Part shown: in pieces, positions 5,521 to 22,165 of the stretch
Layout: the number at the start of each line of letters is the position of its first letter
Numbering within the stretch: position 1 is the first letter of the stretch
Assembly: GCA_031549385.1 (NCBI GenBank)
Contig: JAVBPW010000001.1
Span: 256,001 to 320,000 of the forward strand
Reading direction: 5' to 3'
Source of the DNA: Alphaproteobacteria bacterium
GTDB taxonomy: Bacteria; Pseudomonadota; Alphaproteobacteria; Rs-D84; SZUA-605
Length of the DNA stretch: 64,000 nucleotides
Notes under the pieces: generated by a model
What the model saw: only the letters and a program-made list of their open reading frames with translations
Database searches by the model: none
What the model was told of the DNA's origin: nothing
Position numbers and translations under genes: made by a program

Positions 5521-5540
5521 CCAACTTGAAGTAGACACTT
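5521..5540 (+). repeat. Conserved tRNA 3'-trailer hairpin, copy 3 (degenerate)
   Basis: C-CAACTTGAAGTAG-ACACTT directly after CCA. Confidence 0.8.
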
Positions 5541-5548
5541 TAAAAGAT

Positions 5549-5569: not shown

Positions 5570-5588
5570 ATTTCCTTAATTTTAAATA

Positions 5589-5604
5589 TGTTTCATGTGA
5601 AACA
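5589..5604. promoter_or_regulatory. parS centromere site 1
   Basis: TGTTTCATGTGAAACA, one mismatch from the consensus TGTTTCACGTGAAACA; about 4.4 kb from parB. Confidence 0.9.
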
Positions 5605-5687
5605 TTGAGATAAGTTGTTGTAATTGACTCGCATTTTGAATCGGGTCATTTTTATCTGTTTAAATATATCAAAAATGCATTTAAATA

Positions 5688-5703
5688 TGTTTCACGTGAA
5701 ACA
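5688..5703. promoter_or_regulatory. parS centromere site 2
   Basis: Perfect palindrome TGTTTCACGTGAAACA. Confidence 0.93.
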
Positions 5704-5748
5704 TTTGGATAACTTACTGTAAATGACTCGGATTTTTGAAAAAGTCGC

Positions 5749-7099: not shown

Positions 7100-7980
7100 T
7101 ACTTTTCCTTTTTTGATAATGGATGAAAATTTTGAACTGTTTTTACTAATCTTTCATCCATTATGTGAGTATAAATTTGAGTGGTTGATATATCTTCATG
7201 ACCTAATAACATTTGAACTGAACGTAAATCTGCACCACCTTCTATTAAATGAGATGCAAATGAATGGCGAAAAACGTGTGGAGAAACCTTTAATGGTGAA
7301 ATTCCTGCTGCTAATGCTTGCTTTTTTAACATCTTAAAAAATCCATCTCTGGAAATATAACCCTGTTCTGAGTCACTTGGAAATAGAAAGTTGGATATTT
7401 TACGGCCTTTAGGCAAGAAATTGTTGCGAATTTGTAAATATTTGATTAAGGATTCTTTTGCTTTACTATGAAGTGGTATTATTCTTTCTTTATTACCCTT
7501 CCCTGTTACTGATATTTGATCTTTTTCACCTATGAAGGCTGCCAATGGCAATGATACTAATTCTGAAACTCTTAAACCACAAGCATAAAGTAAATACATC
7601 ATAGCCATCAACCTTATACCATTATTATCATCTGGGGTTTTTAATATTAATTCTAGCTCATCCTGAGTTAAATATTTTGGAAGAGAATTTGTTCTTTTTG
7701 GATTTTCTATTTTTTCCATTGGTGATATTTTTATTTCTTTTTCTTCCATTAAGAATTTATAAAATGTTCTTAAAACTGATAGTTTTCTTGAAAGAGTTTT
7801 TTGACTTAATTCTTGTTCATACAAATATTGTATGTAGTTTTGAATATCTGATTTAGTCGCTTTAGTTATGTCATTTTTATAAAAAGAAATGAAATCCTGT
7901 AAATCCGTTTTATAGGAAAGGATTGTGTTTTTCGAATGCCCCTTTTGAGCAAATAACATTTCTAAGAATCTCTCTTGCAT
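7099..7980 (-). CDS. xerD: Tyrosine recombinase XerD
   Basis: LYACGLRVSELV, GKGNKERIIP, SPHVFRHSFASHL, LLGHEDISTTQIYTH. Confidence 0.9.
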   Translation of the reverse strand: MQERFLEMLFAQKGHSKNTILSYKTDLQDFISFYKNDITKATKSDIQNYIQYLYEQELSQKTLSRKLSVLRTFYKFLMEEKEIKISPMEKIENPKRTNSLPKYLTQDELELILKTPDDNNGIRLMAMMYLLYACGLRVSELVSLPLAAFIGEKDQISVTGKGNKERIIPLHSKAKESLIKYLQIRNNFLPKGRKISNFLFPSDSEQGYISRDGFFKMLKKQALAAGISPLKVSPHVFRHSFASHLIEGGADLRSVQMLLGHEDISTTQIYTHIMDERLVKTVQNFHPLSKKEK

Positions 7981-7986
7981 TCTTTA

Positions 7987-8015
7987 ATTATAGTTAATTA
8001 AAGGTGAAATTTCAA
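7987..8015 (-). promoter_or_regulatory. Sigma70 promoter of xerD (leaderless geometry)
   Basis: Minus strand reads TTGAAA-17 nt-TATAAT-6 nt-ATG. Confidence 0.6.
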
Positions 8016-8029
8016 TGAAACATTGATAA

Positions 8030-8165
8030 TTTTATTTTATAACATATTGTTTTTGGATTCTTATTTGACTCTTTAGTTTTAACTTAAATTTACTTAAAAT
8101 ACCGGCTTTTGATAAAGTTTTTATATTTTATAAGTGCTTGATCTTTGATTCTTATTTGACTCTTT
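8030..8165 (+). repeat. Two tandem copies of the dispersed CCGG/T-tract/TAA-N4-TTG/GANTC motif
   Basis: TATAACATATTGTTTTTGGATTCTTATTTGACTC and TATAAGTGCTTGATCTTTGATTCTTATTTGACTC. Further copies at about 11749, 13178, 13732, 16135 and 19115. Confidence 0.75.
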
Positions 8166-8245
8166 TGATATTTTTTATGATTCAATTTGAAGCTTCAAAT
8201 AATTTTAAGTGGTATATTCTTATTGCTTGGTTTATAATTTTTTAC

Positions 8246-9148
8246 ATGAATTTTGATAAATGGATTGTTATTGATAAGCCTTTAGGAATGACTAGTACAC
8301 AAGTACTTGGCAAAGTTAGAAAATTGTTAGGTGTAAAAAAAGTTGGCCATTTGGGTACACTTGATCCTTTAGCTACTGGAGTTTTACCTATTGCACTTGG
8401 AGAGGCTACTAAAACTATACCTTTTATTAATGACCATACAAAAGAATATGAATTTAATATAATATTTGGAATTGAGTCAGAAACACAGGATTTAGAAGGT
8501 ATAAACTTAGAAAATTTACACGATTTTGAATCTGTTAGCGAATCTGCAATAAGAGCTATTTTACCGGCTTTTAATGGAAAAATTACACAAACACCTCCTC
8601 AATATAGTGCTGTTAAGATTAATGGAGTACCTGCTTATAAGCTAGCAAGAGCAGGTGAGGTGGCTGAAATTAAGCCTAGGGAAGTTGAAATTTATAGCTT
8701 AAAATTTTTAGGAATGGTAAAACCTTATGAAGCTTCTTTTAAAGTTGTTTGTTCTACAGGAACTTATGTTAGGTCACTTGCTGTGGATATTTGTAAAAAA
8801 TTAGGAGTTAAAGGTGTTGTTTCTTTAATCCGCCGACTTCAATCTGGAGTGTTTAAAATTGAAGATTCTATTTTACTTGAAAATTTGGAAAAAATTTCTT
8901 ATAATTTGCCGGAATCGCAAAATGATGTCGTTAATGAAATATTTTTATCTTTAAATAAGGTTCTGGCCGACATCCCGGGTCTTGTTTTAAATCAAGATGA
9001 TATTTCATTGCTGCAACATGGGCAATTTGTGAAACACGAATTTGTTCAGGGTCAAGTTAGAATTGTCGATGACAAAAATAATTTGATTGCGATTGCAAAG
9101 AGTGAAGATGGATTTCTTAAACCTTTGCGAATTTTTAACAACAAATAA
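8246..9148 (+). CDS. truB: tRNA pseudouridine(55) synthase TruB
   Basis: DKPLGMTS, KVGHLGTLDPLATGVL, PPQYSAVK, CSTGTYVRSL. Start moved to the ATG at 8246. Confidence 0.95.
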   Translation: MNFDKWIVIDKPLGMTSTQVLGKVRKLLGVKKVGHLGTLDPLATGVLPIALGEATKTIPFINDHTKEYEFNIIFGIESETQDLEGINLENLHDFESVSESAIRAILPAFNGKITQTPPQYSAVKINGVPAYKLARAGEVAEIKPREVEIYSLKFLGMVKPYEASFKVVCSTGTYVRSLAVDICKKLGVKGVVSLIRRLQSGVFKIEDSILLENLEKISYNLPESQNDVVNEIFLSLNKVLADIPGLVLNQDDISLLQHGQFVKHEFVQGQVRIVDDKNNLIAIAKSEDGFLKPLRIFNNK

Positions 9149-9162
9149 AAAGGAGCATCGCG

Positions 9163-9432
9163 ATGTCGATTACTAAAGAAAAAAAAGCTGTTATCATTAA
9201 AGATAATGCTATTAGTGAAAAAGATACTGGATCTGCATTTGTGCAGGTTGCTGTTTTAACTGAACGTATTAATTCTTTAACTGAACATATGAAAGCTAAT
9301 AAAAAAGATTTCAATTGTCGTTTAGGATTAGAAAAGTTAGTTGGAAGACGTAAAAGATTATTAGCTTATTTGAAAGAAAATAATGCTAAGGCTTATGAAG
9401 AATTAATTAAAAAATTAGGACTTCGTAAATAA
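9163..9432 (+). CDS. rpsO: 30S ribosomal protein S15
   Basis: DTGS..VQVA.LT.RI, RKRLLAYL, LGLRK; truB-rpsO-pnp synteny. Confidence 0.97.
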   Translation: MSITKEKKAVIIKDNAISEKDTGSAFVQVAVLTERINSLTEHMKANKKDFNCRLGLEKLVGRRKRLLAYLKENNAKAYEELIKKLGLRK

Positions 9433-9440
9433 ATTGGAGG

Positions 9441-9461
9441 AGGGGTGTTTGCACCCCTTTT
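9441..9461 (+). terminator. Intrinsic terminator after rpsO
   Basis: AGGGGTG-TTTG-CACCCCT followed by Ts. Confidence 0.75.
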
Positions 9462-9462
9462 C

Positions 9463-9586
9463 TTGTAATATGGTAAAACATATTATATAATTGTGAATAA
9501 GATAAGGACAATATGTATAAAATAGTTTTTTTATACACAGTTTAAAAAGTTGTGCATAAGTAAGCTATTTATATTTTCCTTGTCTT
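9463..9586 (+). promoter_or_regulatory. pnp promoter and long 5'-leader hairpin
   Basis: TTGTAA(9463)-17 nt-TATAAT(9486), then an imperfect ~88-nt stem-loop at 9499-9586. Confidence 0.65.
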
Positions 9587-9620
9587 GAAGTTAACTTAAA
9601 CATTAAAAAGGAAAATAAAA

Positions 9621-11714
9621 ATGTTTGGAAAAAAATCAATGTTCAACGAAACTAAAGTTGAATTTAAATGGAATAACGCAAAAGTTGTTCTGGAAACTGG
9701 AAAATTAGCTAGACAGGCTACTGGCGCTGTTTGGGCTACTATGGGAGAAACTAAAGTTCTTGCGACCGTGGTTGCTGCTAAAAAAGCAACTGAAGGACAA
9801 GACTTCTTCCCACTTACTGTGGATTATGCAGAAAAATATTCTTCTGTTGGAAGATTACCTGGCGGATTTAAAAAGAGAGAAGGGCGACCAAGCGACGACG
9901 AAATTCTTGTTTCTCGTTTGATTGATAGACCTATTAGACCTTTGTTCCCAGAAACATTCTTCAATGAAGTACAATTGCTTACAACTGTTTATGCTTATGA
10001 TGGTGTTAATAGCCCCGATATTTTGGCTTTAATTGCTGCATCTGCTTGTTTGAGTATCTCTGGTGTTCCATTTATGGGACCTATTGGTGCTGTTAGAGTT
10101 GGATATATTAATAATGAATATGTTTTCAATCCTACACCAGAAGCAAGAAAAGAATCTGCTCTTGAATTAGTTGTTGCTGGAACTTCTAATGGAGTTTTGA
10201 TGGTAGAATCTGAAGCAAAACAATTAAATGAAGATATCATGTTAGGTGCTGTTAAAGCTGGATTTGAAAACTTCCAAGTTGTTATTAAAAATATTAATGA
10301 CTTTGCTAAAAAAGCTAAAAAAGAAGCTTGGGAAGTTCCTGCAAGAACTCCTGCTTTTGCTGAAGTTATGAAACTTTTAGAAAAGAAAGCATTACCTGAT
10401 CTTACTAAAGCTTATAAAATTAAAGACAAGTTAGAAAGACAAGATGCTGTTGCTGCTGCTAAAGAAGCTGCTAAAGAAGCTATTGCTGAAAATGAAGAAT
10501 TATTACCTGCATTTGAAACTGCTTTCTTTGAAACAGAATATAAACTTGTTCGTGGAATGGCTTTAAATGATAAAAAGAGAATCGACGGAAGAAAGTTAGA
10601 TGAAGTTAGACCTATTGAATGTGAAGTTGATATTTTACCAACTAATCACGGTTCATCTTTATTTACACGTGGAGAAACTCAATCTCTTGCTACTTTGACT
10701 TTAGCTACAGTAGATGAAGGTCAAATGATTGATGATATTTATGGTATTAGAGATGAAAATTTCTTATTACATTATAACTTCCCAGCTTTCTCTGTTGGAG
10801 AAATTTCAAGAAGAGCATCACTTGGTAGACGTGAACTTGGACATGGAAAATTAGGTTGGAGAGCTCTTCACCCTGTATTGCCATCTCTTGAAGAATTCGG
10901 TTATACTATCAAAATTACTTCTGATATTTTAGAATCTAATGGTTCATCTTCTATGGCTACTGTTTGTGCTGGATGTATGGCTTTAATGGCTGGTGGAGTG
11001 CAAATTAAAGCTCCTGTTGCTGGTATTGCTATGGGTCTTATTAAAGAAGGTAATGACTATGTAGTTCTTTCTGATATCATGGGTGACGAAGATCATCTTG
11101 GAGATATGGACTTTAAAGTGGCTGGATCTAAAGAAGGTATCACATCTTTACAAATGGATATTAAAATTACTTCTATTACTTTTGAAATTATGGAAAAAGC
11201 TTTGAAACAAGCTCGAGATGGACGTATTCATATCTTGGGTGAAATGGCTAAAGCTATTAAGGCACCTAGAAAAGATCTTTCTAAGAATGCTCCTCAAATA
11301 GAAGATATTGAAATTCCTGCTGCTAAAGTTAGAGAAGTTATCGGAAGCGGTGGATCGGTTATTAAGAAAATCCAAGAAGATTTCCAAGTAACTGTTAATA
11401 TCGACGATAAGAATGTTGCACATGTTGCATCTGCTAACCTTGAAAATTTAGAAAAAGCTGTTGCTTTTATTAAAGGTATTTTTGCTGAACCTGAAGTTGG
11501 GCAAATTTATACAGGTGAAGTTGTAAATATCCAAAAGTTCGGTGCATTCGTTAGATTTTTTGGCCAACAAGATGGACTTGTTCATATCTCTGAATTTGGT
11601 ACAAAAGAAAAACGTGTTGATAATATCGAAACAGTTGTAAAACTTGGAGATAAATTAAAGGTTAAATACCTTGGAAAAGAAAAAGGTAAAACTAAATTAC
11701 AATTAGTAAAATAG
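9621..11714 (+). CDS. pnp: Polyribonucleotide nucleotidyltransferase
   Basis: FFPLTVDY, RLIDRPIRPLF, FTRGETQ, ESNGSSSMA, DHLGDMDFKVAG; KH and S1 domains. Confidence 0.98.
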   Translation: MFGKKSMFNETKVEFKWNNAKVVLETGKLARQATGAVWATMGETKVLATVVAAKKATEGQDFFPLTVDYAEKYSSVGRLPGGFKKREGRPSDDEILVSRLIDRPIRPLFPETFFNEVQLLTTVYAYDGVNSPDILALIAASACLSISGVPFMGPIGAVRVGYINNEYVFNPTPEARKESALELVVAGTSNGVLMVESEAKQLNEDIMLGAVKAGFENFQVVIKNINDFAKKAKKEAWEVPARTPAFAEVMKLLEKKALPDLTKAYKIKDKLERQDAVAAAKEAAKEAIAENEELLPAFETAFFETEYKLVRGMALNDKKRIDGRKLDEVRPIECEVDILPTNHGSSLFTRGETQSLATLTLATVDEGQMIDDIYGIRDENFLLHYNFPAFSVGEISRRASLGRRELGHGKLGWRALHPVLPSLEEFGYTIKITSDILESNGSSSMATVCAGCMALMAGGVQIKAPVAGIAMGLIKEGNDYVVLSDIMGDEDHLGDMDFKVAGSKEGITSLQMDIKITSITFEIMEKALKQARDGRIHILGEMAKAIKAPRKDLSKNAPQIEDIEIPAAKVREVIGSGGSVIKKIQEDFQVTVNIDDKNVAHVASANLENLEKAVAFIKGIFAEPEVGQIYTGEVVNIQKFGAFVRFFGQQDGLVHISEFGTKEKRVDNIETVVKLGDKLKVKYLGKEKGKTKLQLVK

Positions 11715-11731
11715 AAAACCAATTTTTAAAT

Positions 11732-11758
11732 AAAAGGCCGGCATTTAGCCGGCTTTTT
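11732..11758. terminator. Bidirectional intrinsic terminator after pnp
   Basis: AAAAGGCCGGC-ATTTA-GCCGGCTTTTT. Confidence 0.8.
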
Positions 11759-11783
11759 GTTTATTAAACACTTGTTTTTGGAT

Positions 11784-12026
11784 TCAATTTTGCTCATAGA
11801 ACAGAACATGTTCCTCTGATTGAGGAGCTGTTAGTTCAACTCTTTGACAAAAGACATCTTCGCCAGATTTGAGAGGAACCCCTTCTTGTGGAAACATGTA
11901 AACAATGTCTCCAGAAATAACTGTTTTTAGCGTTATCCGTGCTTCGGATACGTCTATAATTCTGCACCTTACAGGAGTCTTTATTTCTCCTTTTGATACA
12001 GCTCTTAGAAACTGTTTTCTGGTCAT
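11784..12026 (-). CDS. Small hypothetical protein (ORFan)
   Basis: 80-aa ORF filling an intergenic gap, with a TTGACA promoter upstream. Confidence 0.55.
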   Translation of the reverse strand: MTRKQFLRAVSKGEIKTPVRCRIIDVSEARITLKTVISGDIVYMFPQEGVPLKSGEDVFCQRVELTAPQSEEHVLFYEQN

Positions 12027-12145
12027 TTCTTTTATATGTTTTTAGGTTTAAAATTTAAAAGTTCTTTTGGTTTTAATATATATTGAATCTAATGTCAAAA
12101 GAATTATTGATTTTATTAACATTTATTTATATATTCTTCTTACGC

Positions 12146-12220
12146 GTCCCTATCGTCTAGCGGTTAGGACAGAGGGTTCTCAATCCTCCAACACGGGTTC
12201 GAATCCCGTTAGGGATGCCA
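12146..12220 (+). tRNA. tRNA-Glu(CTC)
   Basis: GTCCCTA/TAGGGAT, GAGGG-TT-CTC-AA-TCCTC, GGTTCGAATCC, CCA. Confidence 0.94.
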
Positions 12221-12241
12221 GCAACTTGAAGTTGCACACTT
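12221..12241 (+). repeat. Conserved tRNA 3'-trailer hairpin, copy 4
   Basis: G-CAACTTGAAGTTG-C-ACACTT directly after CCA. Confidence 0.85.
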
Positions 12242-12330
12242 TATTAGGGGTTATAGCTTGTGTTAATGTTATAAAAAAAGAGTCTGATTTTTCAATCAAA
12301 CTCTTTTTATAAAATAACTGGAAATTTGTT

Positions 12331-12582
12331 TTAACCATCTATGACAAATTCAATGAAGAACCAAATGCTGCCGAGGAATATAAGTCCGCCAAAAATAACA
12401 AGAATAACAGTTATAATAAGTGGAACTTCTGGAATAAAGAAACCTGCGCATACTATCAATATACCTATAGCAAAAATACAAAGGGTTATTAAGGTGTGTA
12501 ATATCGTAAATAAACACCCTCCGCCCTTTTCATCACCTCCATAATGTACAGGAGGTATTACAGTTGGAACAATGATTACCAT
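12331..12582 (-). CDS. Small two-TM membrane protein (ORFan)
   Basis: 83 aa with two hydrophobic helices; TTGACA upstream. Confidence 0.6.
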   Translation of the reverse strand: MVIIVPTVIPPVHYGGDEKGGGCLFTILHTLITLCIFAIGILIVCAGFFIPEVPLIITVILVIFGGLIFLGSIWFFIEFVIDG

Positions 12583-12727
12583 GGTTTTATGTTTTTAAGG
12601 TTTATGTATTTTTAATACATCTATGAACTTTATATAGTAACATATACTATATTTGTCAAGAGTCTTTCATATATATTTTTTATGTATTTTATGGTAGAAT
12701 TAGTAAAATAATTTAATAGGAGATATT

Positions 12728-13174
12728 ATGGGTTTTTTGGGAGAGTTTAAAAAATTTGCTATGCGTGGTAATGTTATTGATATGTCTGTCGGTATCATTA
12801 TTGGGGCTGCTTTTGGTAAAATTGTTGATTCTATGGTGAAAGATATACTTATGCCAGGGATTGGTATGCTTGTTGGTAATGTAGATTTTAGTAATATTTT
12901 TATTACTCTTAAACATGGAAAACAAGTTGATCCTTATAACTCTTTAGCTCAAGCTGTTGCTGATGGAGCTGTTACTATTAATATTGGGGTTTTTATTAAT
13001 ACTTTTATTACATTTATAATTGTGGCTTTTGCTGTGTTCTTGTTGATTAGAACTATTAATAAGGTTGATAAAAATCAAATACAAATCAATAAACAAAAAA
13101 GTTGTCCAGAATGCTTTGAAAAGATAAATATTAAAGCTAAAAGATGTCCTAATTGTACTTCTAAATTAGACTAA
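12728..13174 (+). CDS. mscL: Large-conductance mechanosensitive channel with C-terminal zinc ribbon
   Basis: EFKKFAMRGNVIDMSVGIIIGAAFGKIV; CPEC...CPNC tail. Confidence 0.95.
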   Translation: MGFLGEFKKFAMRGNVIDMSVGIIIGAAFGKIVDSMVKDILMPGIGMLVGNVDFSNIFITLKHGKQVDPYNSLAQAVADGAVTINIGVFINTFITFIIVAFAVFLLIRTINKVDKNQIQINKQKSCPECFEKINIKAKRCPNCTSKLD

Positions 13175-13260
13175 ATACCGGCTTTTAGTGATATTTTTAA
13201 TTTTATAAAGTATTGTTTTTGGATTCTAATTTGTTGTTTTAAAATATAAAGGAGATAATT

Positions 13261-13728
13261 ATGAAAGTTTCAGGTGAGTATAAATTAAAAGATTATTTTA
13301 AATACTTTTTCTATATTATGTTTTCAAGGAGATCTATTCCTGTTTTTATAATAGTAGCTCTTATATTTGCTTTTTTATATGAAAGTTTATTCGTTGCATA
13401 TTTTTGTATAACTTGGTTTTTAGTTATATTTATATTTGTACTTTTAATTACTTATTTTAGATATAAAACAATGAAAAAAGCTGCTAAACTTGGATTGAAA
13501 TTTCGTTCTGATATAACTCTTGGTAATGAAGAATTAAAAGTAGAAGATTTTGTAGGAGATGCTGTTTTTAAATTTTCTGATTTTAGAAGATTATACTGTG
13601 TTAAAGAATTTAAAAATTATTTTTATGTTTTTATAATTAGAAGTCAGGCTATTATTATTCCAAAAAGATTTTTTAATAATAAAAATGATATGCAAAAATT
13701 TAGAGAAAAGATTGTAGAATATTTATAA
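13261..13728 (+). CDS. YcxB-like membrane protein
   Basis: Two TM helices and a C-terminal 'E.KNYFY......AIIIPKR.F' motif. Confidence 0.7.
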   Translation: MKVSGEYKLKDYFKYFFYIMFSRRSIPVFIIVALIFAFLYESLFVAYFCITWFLVIFIFVLLITYFRYKTMKKAAKLGLKFRSDITLGNEELKVEDFVGDAVFKFSDFRRLYCVKEFKNYFYVFIIRSQAIIIPKRFFNNKNDMQKFREKIVEYL

Positions 13729-13753
13729 AATCCGGCTTTTAACCGGATTTTTT
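13727..13753. terminator. Bidirectional terminator between the YcxB-like gene and dnaQ
   Basis: AAAATCCGG-CTTTTAA-CCGGATTTTTT. Confidence 0.7.
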
Positions 13754-13785
13754 ATTTTTATAAGTCTTTGTTTTTTGAATCAAAT

Positions 13786-14475
13786 TTACCAAATGTTGTC
13801 TTTTAGTTTTGATATGAAATCTAAATGATTTTTTAAGTCATCTTCTTGGATTGGAAATATTCTTGGTTCTTTGTAAGTTTTACCTTTTAGTTTTACTTGT
13901 TTTAAGTCACCTTTTTTTTCTGATTCAAAAAATTCTTGTTCTCTGTCTACTGTTAATTCTAAATAAACTTCTGATAAAATATAACTATCAAGTAATGCTC
14001 CATGACCTTTTTCATTACGTTCACTTAAATCAATTTTAAAGTACTCACAGAGGGCATCAAGTGAATGACGTGATATGTCTGTTAATTTTCGACGAGCTAT
14101 CCATAATGTGTCAATTAAACGCGTTTGTGGTATTGTTGGACGACCTATCTTTGTTAGTTCACTGTTTAAGAATTTAAAATCAAATGTTCCATTATGTGCA
14201 ACAAGAGGTGTATCATGACCTATAAATTCAATTAAATCGTTTACTATTTCACAAAAACAAGGTTTATCTGATAAAAAATCATTAGATAATTTATGTACTC
14301 TTAGCGCACCTTCTGATACTTCTTTACCTTCTGGGTTTATATAAGCATGGAAATGCTTTCCTGTTGGAACTTTATTAATTAATTCTACACAACCTATTTC
14401 AATCATTCTGTCGCCAGATACTGGATCAAATCCTGTTGTTTCTGTATCAAATACTATTTCTCTCATTTTATTCAC
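13786..14475 (-). CDS. dnaQ: DNA polymerase III epsilon subunit
   Basis: FDTETTG, EIGCVEL, LVAHN..FD, HGALLDS.IL.EVY.EL. Confidence 0.95.
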   Translation of the reverse strand: MNKMREIVFDTETTGFDPVSGDRMIEIGCVELINKVPTGKHFHAYINPEGKEVSEGALRVHKLSNDFLSDKPCFCEIVNDLIEFIGHDTPLVAHNGTFDFKFLNSELTKIGRPTIPQTRLIDTLWIARRKLTDISRHSLDALCEYFKIDLSERNEKGHGALLDSYILSEVYLELTVDREQEFFESEKKGDLKQVKLKGKTYKEPRIFPIQEDDLKNHLDFISKLKDNIW

Positions 14476-15493
14476 GCACCACTAAACAATCTTTATTTTT
14501 TTTCTTTATATTCTCACATATTTGATTTGCTTTTTCAAATGTTAAATTTACTAATTGTGGTTTGTAGATTATTCCTTTTTCACCTTGGCTTACCATAACT
14601 TGACTTTGGGCTGATAATCCTTCAACCACCTTTAATGCTTGGTCTTTATTATAAAATGCTCCGAGTTGAACTTTATAATCTTGGTCTATCTTTTTATATT
14701 TTTGATTTTTTAATCCTACTTTTTGAAAACCATAATCTAATAAAATAACTACTTCTTTATCTCTTTTCTTGGCTGTTTTGTTTCCTAATGATACTGCTAT
14801 GATTGTTTTACCTTGGCGAGTGGCTGATGCTATTAAATTATACCCTGATTTATCTGTATAACCTGTTTTCATTCCATTACCACCTTCATAAGTATTTAGG
14901 ATATTATTATGTGTTACATATTTCTTACCTTTATATTTAAATTCTTTAGTTTTAAAGTATTTAAAGTATTGAGGAAAATGACTATATATTGCGTAACCAA
15001 GCATTGCCATATCATATGCTGTACAATATTGATTTTCATCTGTAAGACCTGATGCATTTTTAAATGATGTGTTTTGTAGACCTATTTGTGCGGCAGCTGC
15101 TGTCATTATATCTGAAAATCCATTTTCTGTTGTTCCTATGTTTTCAGATAAAACTACTGCTGCATCATTTGCTGATTTTATTATTAATGCATATATTGCT
15201 TCTTTTACTGTTATTGTGTCGCCTATTTTTAAACCTAATTTAGTTTGAGGTTGTTGTGTGGCTCTATATGATACTTTTAATTTTTGATCTTCTTTTATTA
15301 CACCTTTTTCAAGTGCATCAAAAGTTATATATAAAACCATTAATTTTGTGAGTGATGCAGGATAATTGTTTTTAGATTCTGCTGATTTGTATAGTAGGTC
15401 ACCTGTGTCTGCATTTAATACTACATAGGAATGTTCTAATGCATTTGCATTAAAAGTGAATAGTATAGTAAAAAGTAGTATCAGTTTCTTCAT
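14468..15493 (-). CDS. D-alanyl-D-alanine carboxypeptidase (S11) with SPOR domain
   Basis: Intact PASLTK, SAN and KTG motifs; C-terminal VQLGAF SPOR domain. Confidence 0.92.
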   Translation of the reverse strand: MKKLILLFTILFTFNANALEHSYVVLNADTGDLLYKSAESKNNYPASLTKLMVLYITFDALEKGVIKEDQKLKVSYRATQQPQTKLGLKIGDTITVKEAIYALIIKSANDAAVVLSENIGTTENGFSDIMTAAAAQIGLQNTSFKNASGLTDENQYCTAYDMAMLGYAIYSHFPQYFKYFKTKEFKYKGKKYVTHNNILNTYEGGNGMKTGYTDKSGYNLIASATRQGKTIIAVSLGNKTAKKRDKEVVILLDYGFQKVGLKNQKYKKIDQDYKVQLGAFYNKDQALKVVEGLSAQSQVMVSQGEKGIIYKPQLVNLTFEKANQICENIKKKNKDCLVVRE

Positions 15494-15519
15494 AACAAAT
15501 ATTTATATATTAAAAGTTA

Positions 15520-15740
15520 TTATTATTACTGTGTTAAAAATTGTGAAATTAAGAAGTTTTTCATAAGTTTTTCACAGGTAAGTTTGTATTATCATTTCTA
15601 TGATTTTAAAGATATTTCAATCTTAATCAAGAGGGTTGTTAAAAAAAGAAAAACTGTTAATAAGTTGTAGTTAGATTTTAGTAAAAAAATTATTATTATT
15701 ACTATTACAAAGTTATTCACATATAGTTGTGGAAAAGTAA
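15520..15740. promoter_or_regulatory. DnaA-box cluster (oriC candidate or DnaA-titration locus)
   Basis: TTWTNCACA matches at 15568 (+), 15713 (+) and 15728 (-); one-mismatch boxes at 15530, 15557 and 15655; (TAT/TAC)n tract at 15690-15708. Confidence 0.55.
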
Positions 15741-15766
15741 AAAAAATCCCCAGAGGGATTTATTTT

Positions 15767-16066
15767 TTATATAATACAATTATTAATTATGTTTTCATAT
15801 TTTTCTTTTACTTTTTTAATTGTTTCGATACTTGCTTTTTTGTATCCATCATTATTTTTAATTGTTAAAAGAATTAAATTTAATAACATCATTAAAATTT
15901 CATCTTTGGAGTTAGTGTTTATTAAATTTTCTAAATCCTTTTCGATTACTTTTTCAGGTTCTGGTGGAAGAATGATTGTTTCCATTCCGTCTATTACACC
16001 TGCATGTATTATTTTATCATAATTGATATTATTACCGTTAAAGGTAAAAATTATTAAATAATTCAT
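15767..16066 (-). CDS. Hypothetical protein (ORFan)
   Basis: 99-aa ORF with a TTGACT promoter upstream and a hairpin downstream. Confidence 0.55.
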   Translation of the reverse strand: MNYLIIFTFNGNNINYDKIIHAGVIDGMETIILPPEPEKVIEKDLENLINTNSKDEILMMLLNLILLTIKNNDGYKKASIETIKKVKEKYENIINNCII

Positions 16067-16248
16067 AAGATTTATTTTTTAAAGTTTAAATAAATAATAT
16101 CATTATTTTATATCATAGTCAAATTTATATTTTTCCGGCTTTTTAGTAGTTTTTTTATTTTTGTAAGTCTTTGTTTTTTGAATCGAATTTTAAAGTTGTA
16201 AAAAATCATATTTTTTGGTATAATTATATACCTGTAAAGGAGAGTAAT

Positions 16249-16542
16249 ATGAAAGAGACTGTATTAAAGGCAGTTGCACAGCCACCACAATTTTTTAAAG
16301 CACCTTATAGATTAGCTATTTTTAATATTTTATTTCATGTAGCTCTTATGTGTGTTGTGCTTGTTGTGGTTTCTATTGTTAATCCTTTATTTTTTATTGT
16401 TAGTGGTTTTTTAGTTCATTTTTATTTAATATATCTTTATAAAAAAGAACCTCATATTGATAATATTTTGAAAAATATAAAAATTGTACTTAGATCTACT
16501 AATAATTTAGATGGTGAAAATGTAAAAAAGTATTTTAATTAA
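16249..16542 (+). CDS. virB3: Type IV secretion VirB3-like protein
   Basis: KAVAQPP..F.AP, two TM helices, KEPH; AGGAG before ATG 16249; directly precedes virB4. Confidence 0.8.
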   Translation: MKETVLKAVAQPPQFFKAPYRLAIFNILFHVALMCVVLVVVSIVNPLFFIVSGFLVHFYLIYLYKKEPHIDNILKNIKIVLRSTNNLDGENVKKYFN

Positions 16543-16553
16543 GAGGATGTAGC

Positions 16554-19028
16554 TTGTTTGATTTTGTTTTAGATTTTTTTAATTTTGAATTGAATTTTAA
16601 AAGTATTGTGCTTTTTATTGTAGCTATATTTTCTTTTTCACTGTTTTTACTTATTTTTGTTAGAAAGTTTGTTGATAAAATTTTACCAACTGTAAATGAA
16701 ACACGTTTAAAAGATTTTTTGCCTTTCTTGGGTGTTGATCAGGATAAAAAAACTATTCTTTGTAATGATAATACATATGTTCGTGTTTTTTTAGTTGATG
16801 GACTTAATATGATACTTGTGTCTGATAAAGAAAAACAACTTTATTTAGATGTTAGAAAAAAATTTATAGAATCTTTAGATAGTGAAAGTGTTAGTACTAA
16901 ATTTGTTACTTTAAGACAAAAAATTTCTCAAGATACTACAACTGATCATACTAATTTTGTTTTAAAGAAAATTAATGATAAGTGGAATGAAAAAATGAGA
17001 ACTATTTATTCCAATAAATATTATGTAGTTGTTTCTGTTAAAGATGTTGTTAAAAAGAATGCTTTGCAAAAGTTAAATGAAGTAGAACAAATTTTATTAA
17101 CTACTCTTTCTCCATTTAGTCCAAAAGTATTATTACAACAAAATGATTTGAATAAAGATTCTTTGTTGGATGTTTATTCTTATATGGCGTCACCTATTAG
17201 CCGACCTAATATTCGTGGAGATGTTAGTATGGCTTCTATTAATGAGTTAGTTTCTGGAGATGAAGTTGTTTTCAATAAAAATGGTGTTATAGAATTTAGA
17301 TCAGGTGAGAAAAAAAGATATATGACTGTTATAGGTCTTAAAAGAGTACCTGATTATATTGATGAACAAATGTATTCTGATTTAATGACACTTGATTATG
17401 AAATGATTTTCTTAAAATCTTTAAAAGTTTATCCTAATTTAAAAGGAGCAGCGGTTCTTAATTCTCAAAAACGAATTGATCTTTCTACTAATTTTTCTTC
17501 TGAAGTGGAAGGACAATATGATTATGCTATTGATGAACTTAATGATATTGCTGAAAAATCTCAAAAGTTGGTTGATTTTGGAGAAGCTATTTATTTATAT
17601 TCTGATAATTTGCAAGAATTGGAAAAAGGTGTGGAAGATGTATTTAAAGTTCTTAGACTTTATATGGCAACACCTGCTCGTGAAACTTGGGTTGCTCAGA
17701 TTTCATGGTTCTGCTTATTTCCATCTTATGATATAGTACCACGTGTATATAAATTATTATCACGTGCTGTTGCTTGTTCTTTAGTTTTTGAAAGAGTACC
17801 AACTGGATTTATGGGTAATGATTGGGGTGATGGATGTATTTCTATGTTCCCAACTGCTAATGGAACTAATTATAGATTCCAATTCCATATTTCATCTGCG
17901 CCTGCTGCCGTTGCTCACTCTGTTGTTATTGGACCAACTGGTATTGGTAAAACTACACTTTATGCTTTCTTGTGTGGGGCTGCTATGAGATATCCTAAAC
18001 TTAAAGCTTATTTCTTTGATAGAAATAGAGGTATTGAAATCTTTACTAATGCTGTTGGTGGATCTTATCTAACTTTCGTTAGTGGAAAAACTAAAGATAT
18101 TGATTATGGAAAACAAACTTATATGAATCCTTTGAAACTTCCAGATTCACCAGAAAATAGACAGTTTTTAAGACAATGGTTAAAAGCTATTACTTATATG
18201 GATACTCAAGATTATATAAAAGAAGAAGCTGGGGTTGAAGAAGAAATAGCACGCGCTGTATCTGTTGTTTATGATTATTTAGATTATGATTTAAGATCTT
18301 TGAAGAATATCTATAAATCATGTTTTAATCCTAAAGGAATTGTAAGACAAGAAATTAAACGTTGGGTAGATGATGAACAATATGGAATGCTGTTTAATTC
18401 TCCAGTTGATAATTTAGACCTTTCATCTCAATTAACATCTTTTGATTTTACTAATATTTTTGAAGATCCAAAATTAGCACCAGCTATTATTTCATATATT
18501 ATGAATCAGATTAATAATATTTCTACACGAACAGGGGATCCGTCACTTGTTGTAATTGATGAAACTGCACCTATGTTGGAAAATCCTATGTTTAGAAGTA
18601 ATTTCATTATTGGATTACAAGAGGGTAGAAAGAAAAGACAAGCTTATATGGCTGCATTTCAACAACCTAATATTATCGATAAATTAGGAGTAGGGGAAGC
18701 AATCAGAGGTCAATGCCAAACAGTGATATTCTTTAAAAATCCACAAGCAACCTCACAAGATTATGCAGGTTGGAATTTAAATGAAAAAGAAATGGCATTT
18801 ATAGCAGGTAAACTTTATCCAGAACTAAGATATGCTATTTTGATAAAACGACCATTCATAAATGAATCAGTAATTCTAAATATAGATCTTTCATTTGAAG
18901 GACAATATTTGAAGATTTTTGATAGTGGAAGAAAGTCTGTAGTGTTGGCTGATGAGATTCTCAAGAAGATGGGGGCTGGGGCAGCTGGAACAGAGAAGTA
19001 CTTTAACGAGTTATTAAAATCATTATAG
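16554..19028 (+). CDS. virB4: Type IV secretion ATPase VirB4
   Basis: Walker A GPTGIGKTT, FFDRNRG, NPLKL, Walker B VVIDE, RKK..., IFFKNP. Confidence 0.9.
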   Translation: MFDFVLDFFNFELNFKSIVLFIVAIFSFSLFLLIFVRKFVDKILPTVNETRLKDFLPFLGVDQDKKTILCNDNTYVRVFLVDGLNMILVSDKEKQLYLDVRKKFIESLDSESVSTKFVTLRQKISQDTTTDHTNFVLKKINDKWNEKMRTIYSNKYYVVVSVKDVVKKNALQKLNEVEQILLTTLSPFSPKVLLQQNDLNKDSLLDVYSYMASPISRPNIRGDVSMASINELVSGDEVVFNKNGVIEFRSGEKKRYMTVIGLKRVPDYIDEQMYSDLMTLDYEMIFLKSLKVYPNLKGAAVLNSQKRIDLSTNFSSEVEGQYDYAIDELNDIAEKSQKLVDFGEAIYLYSDNLQELEKGVEDVFKVLRLYMATPARETWVAQISWFCLFPSYDIVPRVYKLLSRAVACSLVFERVPTGFMGNDWGDGCISMFPTANGTNYRFQFHISSAPAAVAHSVVIGPTGIGKTTLYAFLCGAAMRYPKLKAYFFDRNRGIEIFTNAVGGSYLTFVSGKTKDIDYGKQTYMNPLKLPDSPENRQFLRQWLKAITYMDTQDYIKEEAGVEEEIARAVSVVYDYLDYDLRSLKNIYKSCFNPKGIVRQEIKRWVDDEQYGMLFNSPVDNLDLSSQLTSFDFTNIFEDPKLAPAIISYIMNQINNISTRTGDPSLVVIDETAPMLENPMFRSNFIIGLQEGRKKRQAYMAAFQQPNIIDKLGVGEAIRGQCQTVIFFKNPQATSQDYAGWNLNEKEMAFIAGKLYPELRYAILIKRPFINESVILNIDLSFEGQYLKIFDSGRKSVVLADEILKKMGAGAAGTEKYFNELLKSL

Positions 19029-19032
19029 TTTT

Positions 19033-19085
19033 GGGCACATTGAAAATGGGTTGCAAATAACATTTTCACCTCATTTTGAATGGCC
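19033..19085 (+). repeat. Palindromic element, internally deleted copy (E1)
   Basis: GGGCACATTGAAAATGGGTTGCAAATAACATTTTC joined to ACCTCATTTTGAATGGCC; matches both ends of 46135-46259. Confidence 0.8.
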
Positions 19086-19298
19086 GCAGATATGTTTTAT
19101 GAAAATTAAAAAAGACGGTGTTTGGTGAGATTTTTATATCTATAACTCTCTGTTTTTGGATTCTAATTTGACTCTTTTTGTTTTTTAATAATCTGTATTT
19201 TCTTTTGTTTGCTTTTTTAATTTTTATAATTATTGATTTTTTAGTTCAAATTTGGTATTAATCAAACAATTAAAATTTATTGAAAAAAGGTGTTTAGT

Positions 19299-20972
19299 AT
19301 GTCACAAAAAGTTCTTATTACTTCTGCTTTACCATATGTTAATGGAGTGCCTCATTTAGGTCACTTGGTTGGGTGTTTATTGCCTTCTGATGTTTTTGCT
19401 AGATTCAATAGGCTGCTTGGTAATGAAGTTTTGTATATTGGTGGAACAGATGAATATGGTACACCTACTGAAGTTGGTGCTCTTAAAGAAGGAATTCCTG
19501 TTAGGGAATATGTTGATAAATATTTTAATGTGCACAAAGAAACTTATGATAAATTCAATTTATCTTTTAATAAGTTAGGGAGAACTTCTACTGATACTCA
19601 TACTAAATTAGTGCAATCTGTTTTTTTAGAATTAAAAGAAAATGGATATATCGAAAACAAAGAAATTGAACAAGTTTATAGTATCAAAGATGATATGTTT
19701 TTGGCTGACAGATATATCGAAGGAACTTGTCCTAAATGTGGATATGAAAAAGCACGTGGAGATCAATGTGATAAATGTGGGTCACTTCTTGATCCTGTTG
19801 ATCTTATTAATCCTTATAGTGTTATTTCTGGATCTCATGATTTGGAAGTTAGAAAAACTGAACATGCTTTTTTGAAATTAAAATCTATGCAGGGGTTAGT
19901 TGAAGATTGGATTAAAACTCGTGTTGGCTGGAGCAAGGTTGCACTTTCTATTGCTAATAAATGGCTTAAGGAAGGTTTGAAGGATAGATGTATTACTAGA
20001 GATATTAAATGGGGTATTCCTGTTCCTGATATGCCTGGAAAAGTTTTTTATGTTTGGTTTGATGCTCCTTGGGGATATGTTTCTATATCTCAAAAATGGG
20101 CAGAAGAAACTGGCGGAGATTGGAAAAGGTTTTGGTTTGAAAATGATACAAGATATTATCAATTTATGGGAAAAGATAATGTGCCTTTCCATAGTGTAAT
20201 GTTTCCTGCTGAAGAATTGGCTACTACTACTAAATGGAAAACAGTTGATGTTTTAAAAGGTTTGAACTTTTTAAACTTTGGTGATGGAAAATTTTCTAAA
20301 TCTTTAGGAAATGGTTTTTCTGGATTAGATGCTGTTGAACTTTTTGATGTAGATTATTGGAGATATTGGTTAATGGCTAATTCACCTGAAAGTGATGATG
20401 CTGAATTTACTTTTAATATTTTTGCAGATCAAATTAATAAAGACCTTAATGATATTTTAGGTAACTTTGTTTTGAGAGTTTTGAAATTTTGTAGGTCTAA
20501 ATTTGGAACTAATGTTCCTGAAAACTTTGGCAATACTGACGTTGAAAATAAATTATTTTCTCAATTAGATGAAAAGGTGGAAGAATATAACTTTGCATTA
20601 TCAAATTTAGAATTTAGAAAAGCTACTAAGGCTTTGCGTGAAATTTGGGTGCTTGGTAATGAGTATATTGCAAACAGTGAACCTTGGAGTGTTATTAAGA
20701 CTGATGAAAAAAGAGCTATGACTATTATTCATAATTCTATTAAATTAATTGCTTTGTTTGGTGTGTTGTCACAACCTATTATGCCTGGAGTTGCCAAAAA
20801 ACTTTTAGCTTTTGTTGGTGTTGAAAAAGAAAACCTTTGGGTTAATGACAATGTGGAAGATTTTGTTAATTCTTTAATTGTTTCTGGAAATGAAATATTT
20901 GTGCCAGATACTTTGTTTGAAAAAATAGATGATGTTAAAGTTGCAGAACTAAAGGAAAAATATAAAGGATAG
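19299..20972 (+). CDS. metG: Methionine--tRNA ligase
   Basis: TSALPYVNG.PHLGH, Zn knuckle CPKC..CDKC, YVWFDA, GKDNVPFH, KFSKS. Confidence 0.97.
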   Translation: MSQKVLITSALPYVNGVPHLGHLVGCLLPSDVFARFNRLLGNEVLYIGGTDEYGTPTEVGALKEGIPVREYVDKYFNVHKETYDKFNLSFNKLGRTSTDTHTKLVQSVFLELKENGYIENKEIEQVYSIKDDMFLADRYIEGTCPKCGYEKARGDQCDKCGSLLDPVDLINPYSVISGSHDLEVRKTEHAFLKLKSMQGLVEDWIKTRVGWSKVALSIANKWLKEGLKDRCITRDIKWGIPVPDMPGKVFYVWFDAPWGYVSISQKWAEETGGDWKRFWFENDTRYYQFMGKDNVPFHSVMFPAEELATTTKWKTVDVLKGLNFLNFGDGKFSKSLGNGFSGLDAVELFDVDYWRYWLMANSPESDDAEFTFNIFADQINKDLNDILGNFVLRVLKFCRSKFGTNVPENFGNTDVENKLFSQLDEKVEEYNFALSNLEFRKATKALREIWVLGNEYIANSEPWSVIKTDEKRAMTIIHNSIKLIALFGVLSQPIMPGVAKKLLAFVGVEKENLWVNDNVEDFVNSLIVSGNEIFVPDTLFEKIDDVKVAELKEKYKG

Positions 20973-20974
20973 AT

Positions 20975-22165
20975 ATGAGAAAGTTATTAATTATTCTTTG
21001 TTTATTTTCTTGTTTCTTTGTACAGGCACGTCCTTTAAAGACACCTGGAAAAAGTGGTATTGTTATTGATTATGAAACAGGACAAATATTGTTTGAAAAA
21101 GATGCTTTTACTCCTATTGCACCTTCTAATATTTCTAAATTGATGACACTTTATACTGCTTATACTCAAATAGATAAACAAAAGTTAGATGTAAATGATA
21201 GTTTTTTTGTTTCTGAAAAAGCGTTAGAAGGAATTGATACAGGTGAAGTTACTGTTTTATTAAAAGTAGGGCAGAAAATTAAAATTAAAGATTTGTTGGA
21301 AGCAGTTGCTATTACTTATGCTGTGGATGCTTGTAAAGTTCTTGCAGAAGGAATTGCTGGAAGTGAAGAAAAGTTTATTGAAATGATGAATTCTACTGCA
21401 AAAGAATTAGGGTTGTCTTCATCATCATTTACTAATTCTTATGGAAAGAATGAAAAAGGACAAGCTATGTCACCATATGATATTAGTGCATTGTTTAGTA
21501 AAATAATTAGTCAGTATCCAGAATATTATAAATCATTTAATAAAAGATTCTTTGATTATGATGGGGCTACTCATGAAGAGAAAACTAAGTATGTTTATAA
21601 TTTTGGAAACAAAAATAAAATTATTTGGGATATGAGAGGGGCTGATGGTGGTGTTGTTGGGTTTACTAAATATGTAGGATATAACATTGTTGCTTCAGCT
21701 GTTAAAGAAAATAGAAGATTAATTGTTGTTCTTTCTGGATTAAAAGCTCAGGGTAGTTTGGAAGAAATCAATCTTGCTCGAGCTCGAGAGGCTAAAGCAG
21801 TTATGAATTCTGTGTTTGAAGATTATACTATTAAGACTTTTTTTAAAACTGAAAAGCCTATTGCAAAAATTGATTTGATGTATGGAAAGAATAAATTTGT
21901 TGCTATTTATCCAGAACGAGATGTTTATTTTATGTATCCTAATAATGCTAAACATAATATTGTTTTGAATGTTTCTTTTTTTGATAGAGTTACTGCCCCA
22001 GTTAAAAAAGGACAAATTGTTGGAAATATTGACATGGTTGTTGATGGTATTAAAATAGATAGCTATAAGGTGATTATTGGAGAAAATGTGAGGTCTTTAT
22101 ATTTTGGACCTGCTAGATTTTTTGAGAACTTAAAACAATTTTTATTATTATTTATTAAGAGGTAA
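20975..22165 (+). CDS. DacA/PBP5-like protein, predicted catalytically inactive
   Basis: S11 domain plus PBP5_C domain in the dacA-tmk-holB context, but the SxxK, SxN and KTG motifs are all replaced. Confidence 0.8.
   Translation: MRKLLIILCLFSCFFVQARPLKTPGKSGIVIDYETGQILFEKDAFTPIAPSNISKLMTLYTAYTQIDKQKLDVNDSFFVSEKALEGIDTGEVTVLLKVGQKIKIKDLLEAVAITYAVDACKVLAEGIAGSEEKFIEMMNSTAKELGLSSSSFTNSYGKNEKGQAMSPYDISALFSKIISQYPEYYKSFNKRFFDYDGATHEEKTKYVYNFGNKNKIIWDMRGADGGVVGFTKYVGYNIVASAVKENRRLIVVLSGLKAQGSLEEINLARAREAKAVMNSVFEDYTIKTFFKTEKPIAKIDLMYGKNKFVAIYPERDVYFMYPNNAKHNIVLNVSFFDRVTAPVKKGQIVGNIDMVVDGIKIDSYKVIIGENVRSLYFGPARFFENLKQFLLLFIKR

Follow-up and report, generated by a model that had tools for sequence, protein, structure and literature searches.

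Why should one short sequence, always in the same orientation, recur in gap after gap between the genes around the only good parS sites of a small bacterial genome? The question is posed by a stretch of 64,000 nt (the window, G000:C7:256001-320000, whose numbering is used for all positions given without a contig) from G000, a small gut alphaproteobacterium with a genome of 931 kb (8 contigs, 30% G+C, 97% complete). The original prediction had described here a polarised intergenic motif of ~55 bp that carries a GANTC site at fixed spacing, and had seen in it an oriented array of protein-binding sites that organises the origin/centromere domain. The existence of the repeat family is confirmed and extended by the present analysis. 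The reading that we favour, with a probability of about one half, is nevertheless a different one: a lineage-specific, locally multiplied module of 60-65 bp that joins a terminator to a conserved, putative protein-binding site.

The copies are named A, which lies to the left of the window, and B to I, which lie within it (Table 1). An nhmmer profile trained on the 8 window copies and searched against the whole 931-kb genome recovered these 8 and a ninth, all on the + strand; the next match (E 0.067) covers the hairpin half only and lies on the opposite strand. A second, Infernal sequence profile found the same nine copies at 26.2-53.5 bits, with the rest of the genome at or below 19.3 bits. 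They span 20 kb (C7:255239-275256, or -762 to 19256 in the window), and there are none elsewhere in the genome. All seven TAA positions listed originally (8040, 8131, 11765, 13206, 13761, 16164 and 19143), and the degenerate copy at 19227, do carry the motif on the + strand. The pattern TAANNNNTTGTTTTTKGANTC, with at most 2 mismatches, matches the window 7 times, always on the + strand and always at these TAA positions, compared with 1.31 +/- 1.14 matches in dinucleotide shuffles of the window, none of 100 of which reaches 7; the motif is more frequent than in shuffled DNA. The fixed spacing is also borne out, since GANTC starts 16 nt after the TAA in all 8 non-degenerate copies (its N being T in 5, A in 2 and G in 1). 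The CCGG/ACGG element, which had been reported 28-29 nt before the TAA in five copies, is present in 7 of the 9, at 27-29 nt. From 7980 to 19290 there are 9 intergenic gaps of more than 50 bp, and 6 of them hold copies, in keeping with the statement that many gaps are filled; 7/9 copies are followed by a gene or tRNA on the + strand. B and C, like H and I, form tandem pairs, and two GANTC sites 11 bp apart are found in three copies, which account for 3 of the 5 such pairs in the genome. Some of the earlier statements had to be amended. The array had been placed between 8 and 19 kb: there is indeed no copy from 19.3 to 64 kb of the window, but the cluster starts at -0.76 kb and flanks parS on both sides, its nine copies lying from -6.4 to +13.6 kb around the parS pair. 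The motif had also been said to be exclusive to the parS neighbourhood, which in the genome-wide profile scan is true of the full module but not of its 14-nt core, found also at C7:353954.

Table 1. Copies of the repeat and other mapped features (window positions unless a contig is named; E, nhmmer E-value; bits, Infernal score; dG, folding energy).
Feature	Position	Strand	Setting and sequence features
Copy A	C7:255243-255298	+	0.7 kb left of the window; between convergent secB and mreB; E 8.4e-8; absent from the training set
Copy B	8022..8071	+	3' half only, no CCGG arm; divergent xerD/truB gap; tandem with C; E 1.8e-6; 35.3 bits
Copy C	8096..8162	+	Full-length; first arm CCGGC kept, second lost; no stable hairpin (z -0.35); two GANTC (GATTC, GACTC) 11 bp apart; E 1.2e-10
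Copy D	11732..11795	+	Starts 22 nt past the pnp stop; intact GCCGGC hairpin at 11737-11753 (dG -22.9), A- and T-tracts on either side
Copy E	13173..13235	+	2 nt past the mscL stop; ends 27 nt upstream of the ATG of a YcxB-like gene; hairpin decayed (z -1.12)
Copy F	13727..13791	+	Occupies the entire 57-bp convergent gap between the YcxB-like gene and dnaQ, overlapping the dnaQ stop; 8-bp CCGG hairpin; terminator called at 13727-13751
Copy G	16133..16192	+	Divergent gap; ends 4 nt upstream of the -35 of a promoter-like site (TTGTAA-17-TATAAT, 16196-16224) in front of virB3-virB4
Copy H	19109..19174	+	86 nt past the virB4 stop; degenerate arm ACGGT; two GANTC 11 bp apart; 53.5 bits
Copy I	19202..19256	+	Degenerate; tandem with H; 34 nt upstream of metG; GANTC lost (AGTTC); TTGATT-17-TATTAA promoter-like by eye; E 0.003; 26.2 bits
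parS site	5589-5604		1 mismatch; with the next, the only good parS in the genome
parS site	5688-5703		Perfect
rpsO-pnp leader hairpin	9498..9587	+	Long hairpin; dG -28.7, z -3.56

Alignments of the copies divide the module into two halves. The 5' half runs from an A-rich stretch through CCGGC, a short loop and the second arm to a T-tract, and is a bidirectional intrinsic terminator, intact in three copies. RNA folding is significant only in A (z -4.11) and D (z -4.23); C, E, G, H and I fold no better than shuffles, F has an 8-bp stem, and a terminator scan calls D and F. An intrinsic terminator is thus recognisable in 3/9 copies (A, D and F), the other six having no second arm, and these three act as terminators in both directions because A-tracts precede and T-tracts follow the stem. 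Convergent genes flank A and F; D stands behind pnp. Elsewhere in the genome 5 loci, on both strands, have CCGG-stem terminators like these, from which it follows that the 5' half is of a generic terminator type.

It is the 3' half that defines the family: a T-rich segment of 36-40 bp, (T)5-ATAA-N4-TTGTTTTTKGANTC-N2-AATTT(G), whose copies are 56-88% identical and mosaic in look. A profile built on this half alone retrieves its 8 training copies only (next match E 0.59), and folding against shuffles revealed no RNA structure in it. Its pattern of conservation is the informative part. YAA, TTG and GANTC are kept in 12-13 sites of two genera, with variation in the 4-nt spacer and in the N of GANTC, and B, D and E carry an identical 14-mer beside a 4-nt block with almost no letters in common; kept ends with a free spacer and a free N are the signature of a bipartite protein-binding site. 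To judge from this, the copies resemble protein-binding sites rather than promoters or RNA genes. A repeat of sigma-70 promoters was rejected: the scan found no -35/-10 pair, at a spacing of 16-18 bp, in register with the copies, only copy I resembles one by eye, and the region holds 55 promoter-like sites against 65.6 expected. A structured RNA family was likewise set aside, the copies having no common fold and no Rfam match at the gathering score (at E <=1 there are only weak, terminator-like matches at copy D). Three further candidates were dropped: a sigma-54 site (consensus TGG-N9-TTG), discarded by eye as the GG is absent in 4 of the 9 copies, no search for rpoN having been made; a minus-strand promoter, T[TA]GAAT-17-TAAAAT, discarded by eye for its poor hexamers and for transcripts that would enter the hairpin; and a local DNA-binding regulator, the small open reading frames (ORFs) of the cluster encoding a YcxB-like membrane protein, SecB, MreB or proteins without a family. 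The protein-binding part of the original prediction agrees with the bipartite conservation, with the lack of a fixed promoter and with the lack of a fold in the 3' half; the origin/centromere role that it attached to the sites does not share in this support.

What the 3' half may do is suggested by the places where its core occurs outside the cluster. The exact 14-nt core TTGTTTTTKGANTC is present 7 times in the genome, always on the + strand, compared with 0-1 occurrences per shuffle in 10 shuffles. The cluster contains five of them; another is intragenic (C7:245688), with flanks that have no similarity to the module; and the last, site J, is intergenic at C7:353954. Site J reads CAA-CCTC-TTGTTTTTTGAGTC-GTAATTT and lies directly behind a terminator hairpin, 140 nt upstream of tRNA-Trp-secE-nusG and 80 kb from the cluster. 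Forty genomes of the same order were used as relatives, only one of which, G001 (84% complete), belongs to the same family, as a sister genus. The best profile match outside G000 is in this genome, TAA-GCGT-TTGTTTTTTGAATC-AAATTT, and it stands behind the tuf terminator and before tRNA-Trp-secE-nusG, that is, in the spacer orthologous to that of site J. In the pairwise alignment of these tRNA-Trp spacers the core is identical at 13 of 14 positions, and a second block is conserved, TTGCTTTTTTTT-N3-GAATC-N-TTTA (C7:353985-354013, and locus L173 of G001), which is promoter-like, with its GANTC ~3 nt upstream of the -10. A second G001 copy, TAA-ATAG-TTGTTTTTTGAATC, precedes rpsL-rpsG. The core is 17-18 bp upstream of the -35 of the promoter-like site at tRNA-Trp, and at rpsL of G001 the copy ends 31 nt upstream of the -35 (TTGACT-17-TATGAT); rpsL of G000 has no core. 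VirB4 of G000 and G001 are 52% identical, and PNPase is 52-63% identical across the order (with a match in 38 of 41 genomes), which makes it unlikely that a spacer would retain a 14-mer neutrally. Among 39 genomes of other families the exact core was found 17 times, singly, against 14 for a reversed control, and never near tRNA-Trp. From its position before tRNA-Trp and rpsL the core appears to be a promoter-upstream element rather than an origin-specific one, and the 3' half is probably a conserved upstream element bound by a protein. A weak third core of G001 stands in a spacer with 8 GANTC in ~170 nt (L153, G001:C26, locus ~910-1090), between the end of an autotransporter gene and the start of a 159-residue ORF.

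Which protein might bind there? The genes that the original prediction proposed to look for, ihfA/ihfB and ccrM, have counterparts in G000: an IHF-alpha-like protein (104.8 bits, NCBIfam cut-off 111), an IHF-beta-like protein (69.9 bits, cut-off 115) and a CcrM homologue of full length (585.9 bits, with 347 of 350 model positions covered; equivalog cut-off 830). HU and a homologue of GcrA are also encoded. The consensus of IHF sites is WATCAANNNNTTR. Read on the minus strand as AAACAA-N4-TTA, 7 of the 9 copies differ from it at one position (H at 2 and I at 3; none is perfect), and CAA-N4-TTR is kept in all sites with a free spacer. Sites with at most one mismatch to WATCAANNNNTTR occur once per 228 bp of intergenic DNA, however, and for this reason the resemblance to IHF sites noted earlier carries little information and is a lead, not evidence. 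As to GANTC, its observed/expected ratio across the genome is 0.87 in coding and 1.06 in intergenic DNA, with no signature of selection; according to the consulted part of PMC3973325, orders that bear CcrM over-represent GANTC more than 1.5-fold in intergenic DNA, and Rickettsiales are an exception to its genome-wide depletion. Methylation sites relevant to GcrA are placed at ~-20 and +2 to +30 in the available portion of PMC4647560. The upstream core, at about -54 to -67 of the promoter-like site of tRNA-Trp, falls outside the positions reported there, and the GAATC of the promoter-like block agrees with the GcrA-dependent positions in Caulobacter (PMC4647560). The likeliest binder would be a nucleoid protein that bends DNA, of the IHF/HU type, or else a reader of the CcrM site such as GcrA.

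The full module has, by contrast with its core, no counterpart among the relatives. No profile match above 23.6 bits was obtained in the 40 genomes, so that of the conservation proposed as a check only the core, at two promoters of G001, came through. The parS regions of G002 and G016 contain the same gene set (parAB, rsmG, a TPR gene, metG, dnaQ, a dac gene and virB3-virB4) in other orders, and no comparable repeat array. At the conserved xerD-truB junction, which is 73 bp long in G006 and 267 bp in G000, where it holds B and C, the module looks like an insertion into an existing spacer. The idea that copies mark cassettes or breakpoints was abandoned, B/C and G being at junctions conserved in G006 and G002. 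In G001 xerD is cut by the contig end, virB3-virB4 are on a 3.2-kb contig, pnp, dnaQ and metG were not found in the 84% of the genome that is assembled, and the counterpart of the parS-region cluster is unassembled. A metagenome scan with PNPase gave identities of at most 58% in the 80 loci kept, and no fetched locus matched the repeat profile. A 27-nt pattern had 24 single matches in a collection of species genomes, in unrelated taxa and without clustering; five of them, in Pelagibacteraceae, represent one conserved, apparently coding stretch. RNA was searched for in two metatranscriptome runs of one study, X1 and X2, which contained 0.10 and 0.00 of the words; over 7500-21000, error-free contig pieces match parts of truB/rpsO, of pnp and of virB4, as well as 12337-12605, but none of the copies. 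The 269-nt piece at 12337-12605 spans the tRNA-Glu/mscL gap, where there is only an 83-residue ORF without a family.

The strict polarity of the cluster and its confinement have parallels in the same genome. Self-comparison returned 247 intervals that bear repeats, among them several families of 10 copies or more. One unrelated family of ~135 bp has 19/19 copies on one strand, on three contigs (C2, C4 and C7; e.g. C7:204876-450323), 17 of them beginning directly at the stop of a gene on the + strand, with no reversed copy after a - strand gene. Another, of ~100 bp, keeps to C7:81-193 kb (C7:81728-192827), again with all its copies (15/15) on one strand. With two other families that run in one direction, polarity and confinement are not special to the family of the parS region. 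Only 47% of the genes of C7 are on the + strand, and three unrelated one-directional families in a genome with about half of its genes on each strand point to strand-specific spreading, the cause of which is unexplained. Other short repeats lie nearby. A 42-bp piece of a further family, ~125 bp long, lies at the virB4 stop (19025-19066), with copies elsewhere at C7:287987, 302126 and 434350, all on the + strand; together with H and I it makes the virB4-metG gap a mosaic of three repeat pieces. Directly past copy D, at 11797-11830, there is a GAAC-N7-GTTC palindrome (agaacagaacatgttcc) followed by a hairpin, GTTCCTCTGATTGAGGAGC, in a 430-bp gap that contains only a doubtful 80-residue minus-strand ORF before tRNA-Glu. 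The tRNA genes for Arg, His, Gln and Glu (2204-2255, 2345-2396, 5492-5543 and 12192-12243) are each directly followed by the small hairpin CAACTTGAAGTTG + ACACTTTA, a local tRNA-trailer repeat that perhaps serves as a processing or termination signal.

These observations can be assembled as follows. The older home of the 3' half would be the spacer before tRNA-Trp-secE-nusG, behind a terminator and 17-18 bp upstream of the -35, where it may serve as the site of a bending or methylation-reading protein that acts upstream of sigma-70 promoters. Terminator and site would then have been copied as a unit into pre-existing neighbouring gaps, by gene conversion or non-reciprocal recombination, or by template switching between terminators, this terminator-plus-site module probably having given rise to the nine copies by local duplication. 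The hairpin would have been retained where termination is needed, between convergent genes and at the end of pnp, and would be decaying elsewhere, while some of the duplicates may have come to stand upstream of promoters on the + strand. The single orientation and the confinement would stem from a copying process common to the other families of the genome and not from a function at the origin or centromere.

Several points weigh against this reading: (i) the alignments show no terminal inverted repeats or target duplications, and the 97%-complete genome has no Y1/RAYT transposase. (ii) The distance from the core to a promoter-like site varies from 4 to ~50 nt in the copies, and is 17-18 versus 31 nt elsewhere, so that no single geometry of activation fits. 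(iii) The 20-kb cluster lies over the only parS pair, for which the prior is ~2% (20/931 kb), and the coincidence is therefore uncomfortable. (iv) In the 3' half nearly every copy has retained the G and C positions, and CCGGC is kept in C, E and G despite the loss of the second arm, a hint of selection and hence of a possibly functional array. (v) Lineage-specific amplification is deduced only from absence in distant relatives.

Unlikely, but the best placed of the other readings, is that of a neutral or selfish repeat of the REP or MITE (miniature inverted-repeat transposable element) type without any binding function, the match at tRNA-Trp being an older insertion and the apparent constraint an effect of ascertainment. 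The genome is certainly rich in short repeats, the copies are as diverged and mosaic, and their hairpins as decayed, as this would lead one to expect, and constraint is not measurable against close relatives. It is less easily reconciled with a core kept at 13 of 14 positions in the orthologous spacer of a genus whose VirB4 is only 52% identical, or with the identical 14-mer of B, D and E beside unlike 4-nt blocks, and the usual marks of mobility (inverted termini, target duplication, transposase) are missing. A MITE of the Correia, ERIC or RUP type was rejected on the absence of inverted termini and flanking duplications in the alignments and on the unfolded 3' half. A REP/RAYT system was rejected because PF01797 has no match in the 97%-complete genome (control genomes were positive) and because only 3 of 9 copies are palindromic.

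Somewhat less probable still is a regulon, in which each copy would be the operator or upstream activating site of one transcription factor that co-regulates + strand units, many of them devoted to translation. The units in question are truB-rpsO-pnp, tRNA-Glu, metG and tRNA-Trp-secE-nusG, joined in the sister genus by rpsL; of six downstream units, site J included, four are translation-related, and both sister-genus copies precede units of this kind, tRNA-Trp-secE-nusG and rpsL-rpsG. That 7 of the 9 copies are followed by a + strand gene or tRNA, that conservation is bipartite with a free spacer, that copy G adjoins a -35 and that copy I overlaps a promoter-like site would all fit. A and F, however, sit between convergent genes, where there is nothing to regulate, and the distance to the next promoter-like site is variable. 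Moreover, a regulon does not explain why the terminator arm CCGGC accompanies the site in 7/9 copies, the remaining ribosomal-protein operons, tRNAs and synthetase genes of the genome, and its own rpsL, have no site, and confinement to 20 kb would be odd.

The array proposed originally is in our opinion improbable. According to it, oriented IHF-type sites gated by CcrM would shape the parS/origin-proximal domain by bending, by limiting ParB spreading or SMC loading, or by sequestration at hemimethylated GANTC. The parS neighbourhood has two good sites, at 5589 and 5688, that are the only ones in the genome; both are within a 57-nt direct repeat (5581-5637 and 5680-5736, 86% identical, 99 bp apart, with one GACTC per unit). 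Nine full copies surround this pair with uniform polarity on both sides, GANTC is kept in 8 of them while its N varies, 3 of the 5 close GANTC pairs of the genome are here, and genes for CcrM, GcrA and IHF-like proteins are present. A step in the skew near 260 kb can be added: when split by gene strand, the strand-independent skew of C7 is +0.02 to +0.05 to the left of ~255 kb and +0.10 to +0.145 to the right of 265 kb, and never negative. On the other contigs it is +0.10 to +0.13 (C2, C4 and C6) or near zero (C1 and C5), which is no ordinary two-replichore pattern.

The evidence does not place an origin here. The dnaA gene is on contig C5 and not on C7, hemE was not found in the genome, and the cumulative GC-skew minimum of C7, with which the array was to be compared, is at 80-85 kb, away from the cluster. 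DnaA-box-like words (TTATNCACA) number 46 in the genome, and their only triple, at 9492-9559, is in the rpsO-pnp leader, where 2 of the 3 words are the paired arms of the leader hairpin (Table 1); the rpsO-pnp spacers of five relatives have none. The DnaA-box neighbourhood is thus accounted for by the arms of a pnp leader hairpin, and was discarded as evidence of an origin. A weak match to the S15 leader overlies 9088-9219 (30.2 bits, under the gathering score). Beyond the origin, the array has to contend with a core that stands at tRNA-Trp 80 kb away, and at tRNA-Trp and rpsL in the sister genus; with other families that are equally polar and confined; with the parS regions of G002 and G016, which have no comparable repeat; with a GANTC ratio near 1 and an uninformative IHF match; and with three copies that are terminators, two of them filling convergent gaps. 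For these reasons the claim of an origin/centromere organiser was not sustained. In its most defensible form, a selected, oriented array of CCGGC-~23 nt-YAA-N4-TTGTTTTTKGANTC sites for a bending or methylation-reading protein that would structure 20 kb around parS, for instance by confining ParB spreading or SMC loading or by using hemimethylated GANTC to time events once the fork has passed, with tRNA-Trp and rpsL as single-site uses of this protein, it retains a small chance, because of the parS prior, the retention of the G/C positions and of CCGGC, the GANTC pairs and the absence of inverted ends, target duplications and a Y1 transposase.

Finally, the copies are very improbable as integron attC-like or dif/pdif-like recombination sites of the neighbouring XerD-like tyrosine recombinase that would bound gene cassettes, for although the array is beside a divergent tyrosine recombinase gene that matches an integron-integrase model (E 8.8e-42), and direct repeats bound gene blocks whose order differs in relatives, the recombinase scores as XerD (325.6 bits, cut-off 329.6) with an orthologue at the xerD-truB-rpsO-pnp junction of G006, the supposed 'cassettes' consist of core genes and of multi-gene operons, copy A is 8 kb beyond the recombinase gene on its other side, a dif-like filter (ATAA, 6 nt, an XerD arm with at most 2 mismatches, the arm being that of E. 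coli) lets none of the copies through, and the copies are not imperfect palindromes.

How does the family compare with known elements? Stable-RNA and ribosomal-protein promoters carry UP elements, upstream activator sites or IHF/Fis sites. Like them, the present element is T/A-rich and centred about -55 to -70 before tRNA-Trp-secE-nusG in both genera and before rpsL in the sister genus; unlike them, it has fixed G/C positions, a CcrM site and a variable spacing to the -35, and most cluster copies have no promoter at a matching distance. The two other families of this genome discussed above are also intergenic, associated with gene ends and restricted to one strand. They are single long hairpins of unrelated sequence, whereas the present family combines a hairpin with a non-folding site that has a conserved promoter counterpart in the sister genus.

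The CIR elements (CcrM-associated intergenic repeats) of Caulobacter, Brucella and other Alphaproteobacteria were reportedly presented by Chen and Shapiro in 2003. In the consulted portion of PMC2229807 they are abundant elements of ~110 bp with two long stem-loops and a GANTC in the loop, present across genera of Alphaproteobacteria. To judge from that portion, the family shares with them that it is an alphaproteobacterial repeat found only between genes, with a conserved GANTC and without clear transposon ends, and a GANTC is indeed conserved in 8 of the 9 copies, at site J and at 2-3 sister-genus sites. The size, the two stem-loops and the cross-genus sequence were not found, and the description, as far as it goes in that portion, sets CIR apart from a 60-65-bp repeat with one hairpin and an unpaired GANTC outside it, of which nine copies lie within 20 kb and only the core, not the module, is common to the sister genus. 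SPRITE, a terminator-like repeat (PMC3184786, in the part at hand), is similarly based on an intrinsic-terminator motif, with a preference for the 3' ends of genes, convergent ones included. In contrast to our family, it is ~105 bp long and dispersed, in a Gram-positive genome, and the same part of its description mentions no attached non-hairpin segment or methylation site. BIME of E. coli and Correia elements of Neisseria carry IHF sites, as stated in the sections consulted of PMC3184786 and PMC2229807. In those sections BIME/RIP and Correia elements resemble the present family in combining a short intergenic hairpin with a site for a nucleoid protein, and in their roles as terminators, promoter-upstream elements or mRNA stabilisers; they differ in having palindromic or inverted termini and in occurring in both orientations, the present family having no such termini and a single orientation. 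It thus belongs to the short intergenic repeats, without the defining architecture of CIR, SPRITE, BIME or Correia elements. No description of an oriented repeat centred on parS was met in the literature looked at, in which no search was aimed at that question.

If the reading that we favour is true, that of a locally multiplied terminator-plus-site module, the family would be one more lineage-specific intergenic repeat, and an example of a terminator and a regulatory site copied together in a shrinking genome. Should the array function as an array, it would be an undescribed feature of the centromere domain. The core TTGTTTTTKGANTC, with its CcrM site, is for its part a candidate conserved upstream element of an uncultured family in which CcrM and GcrA have been retained.

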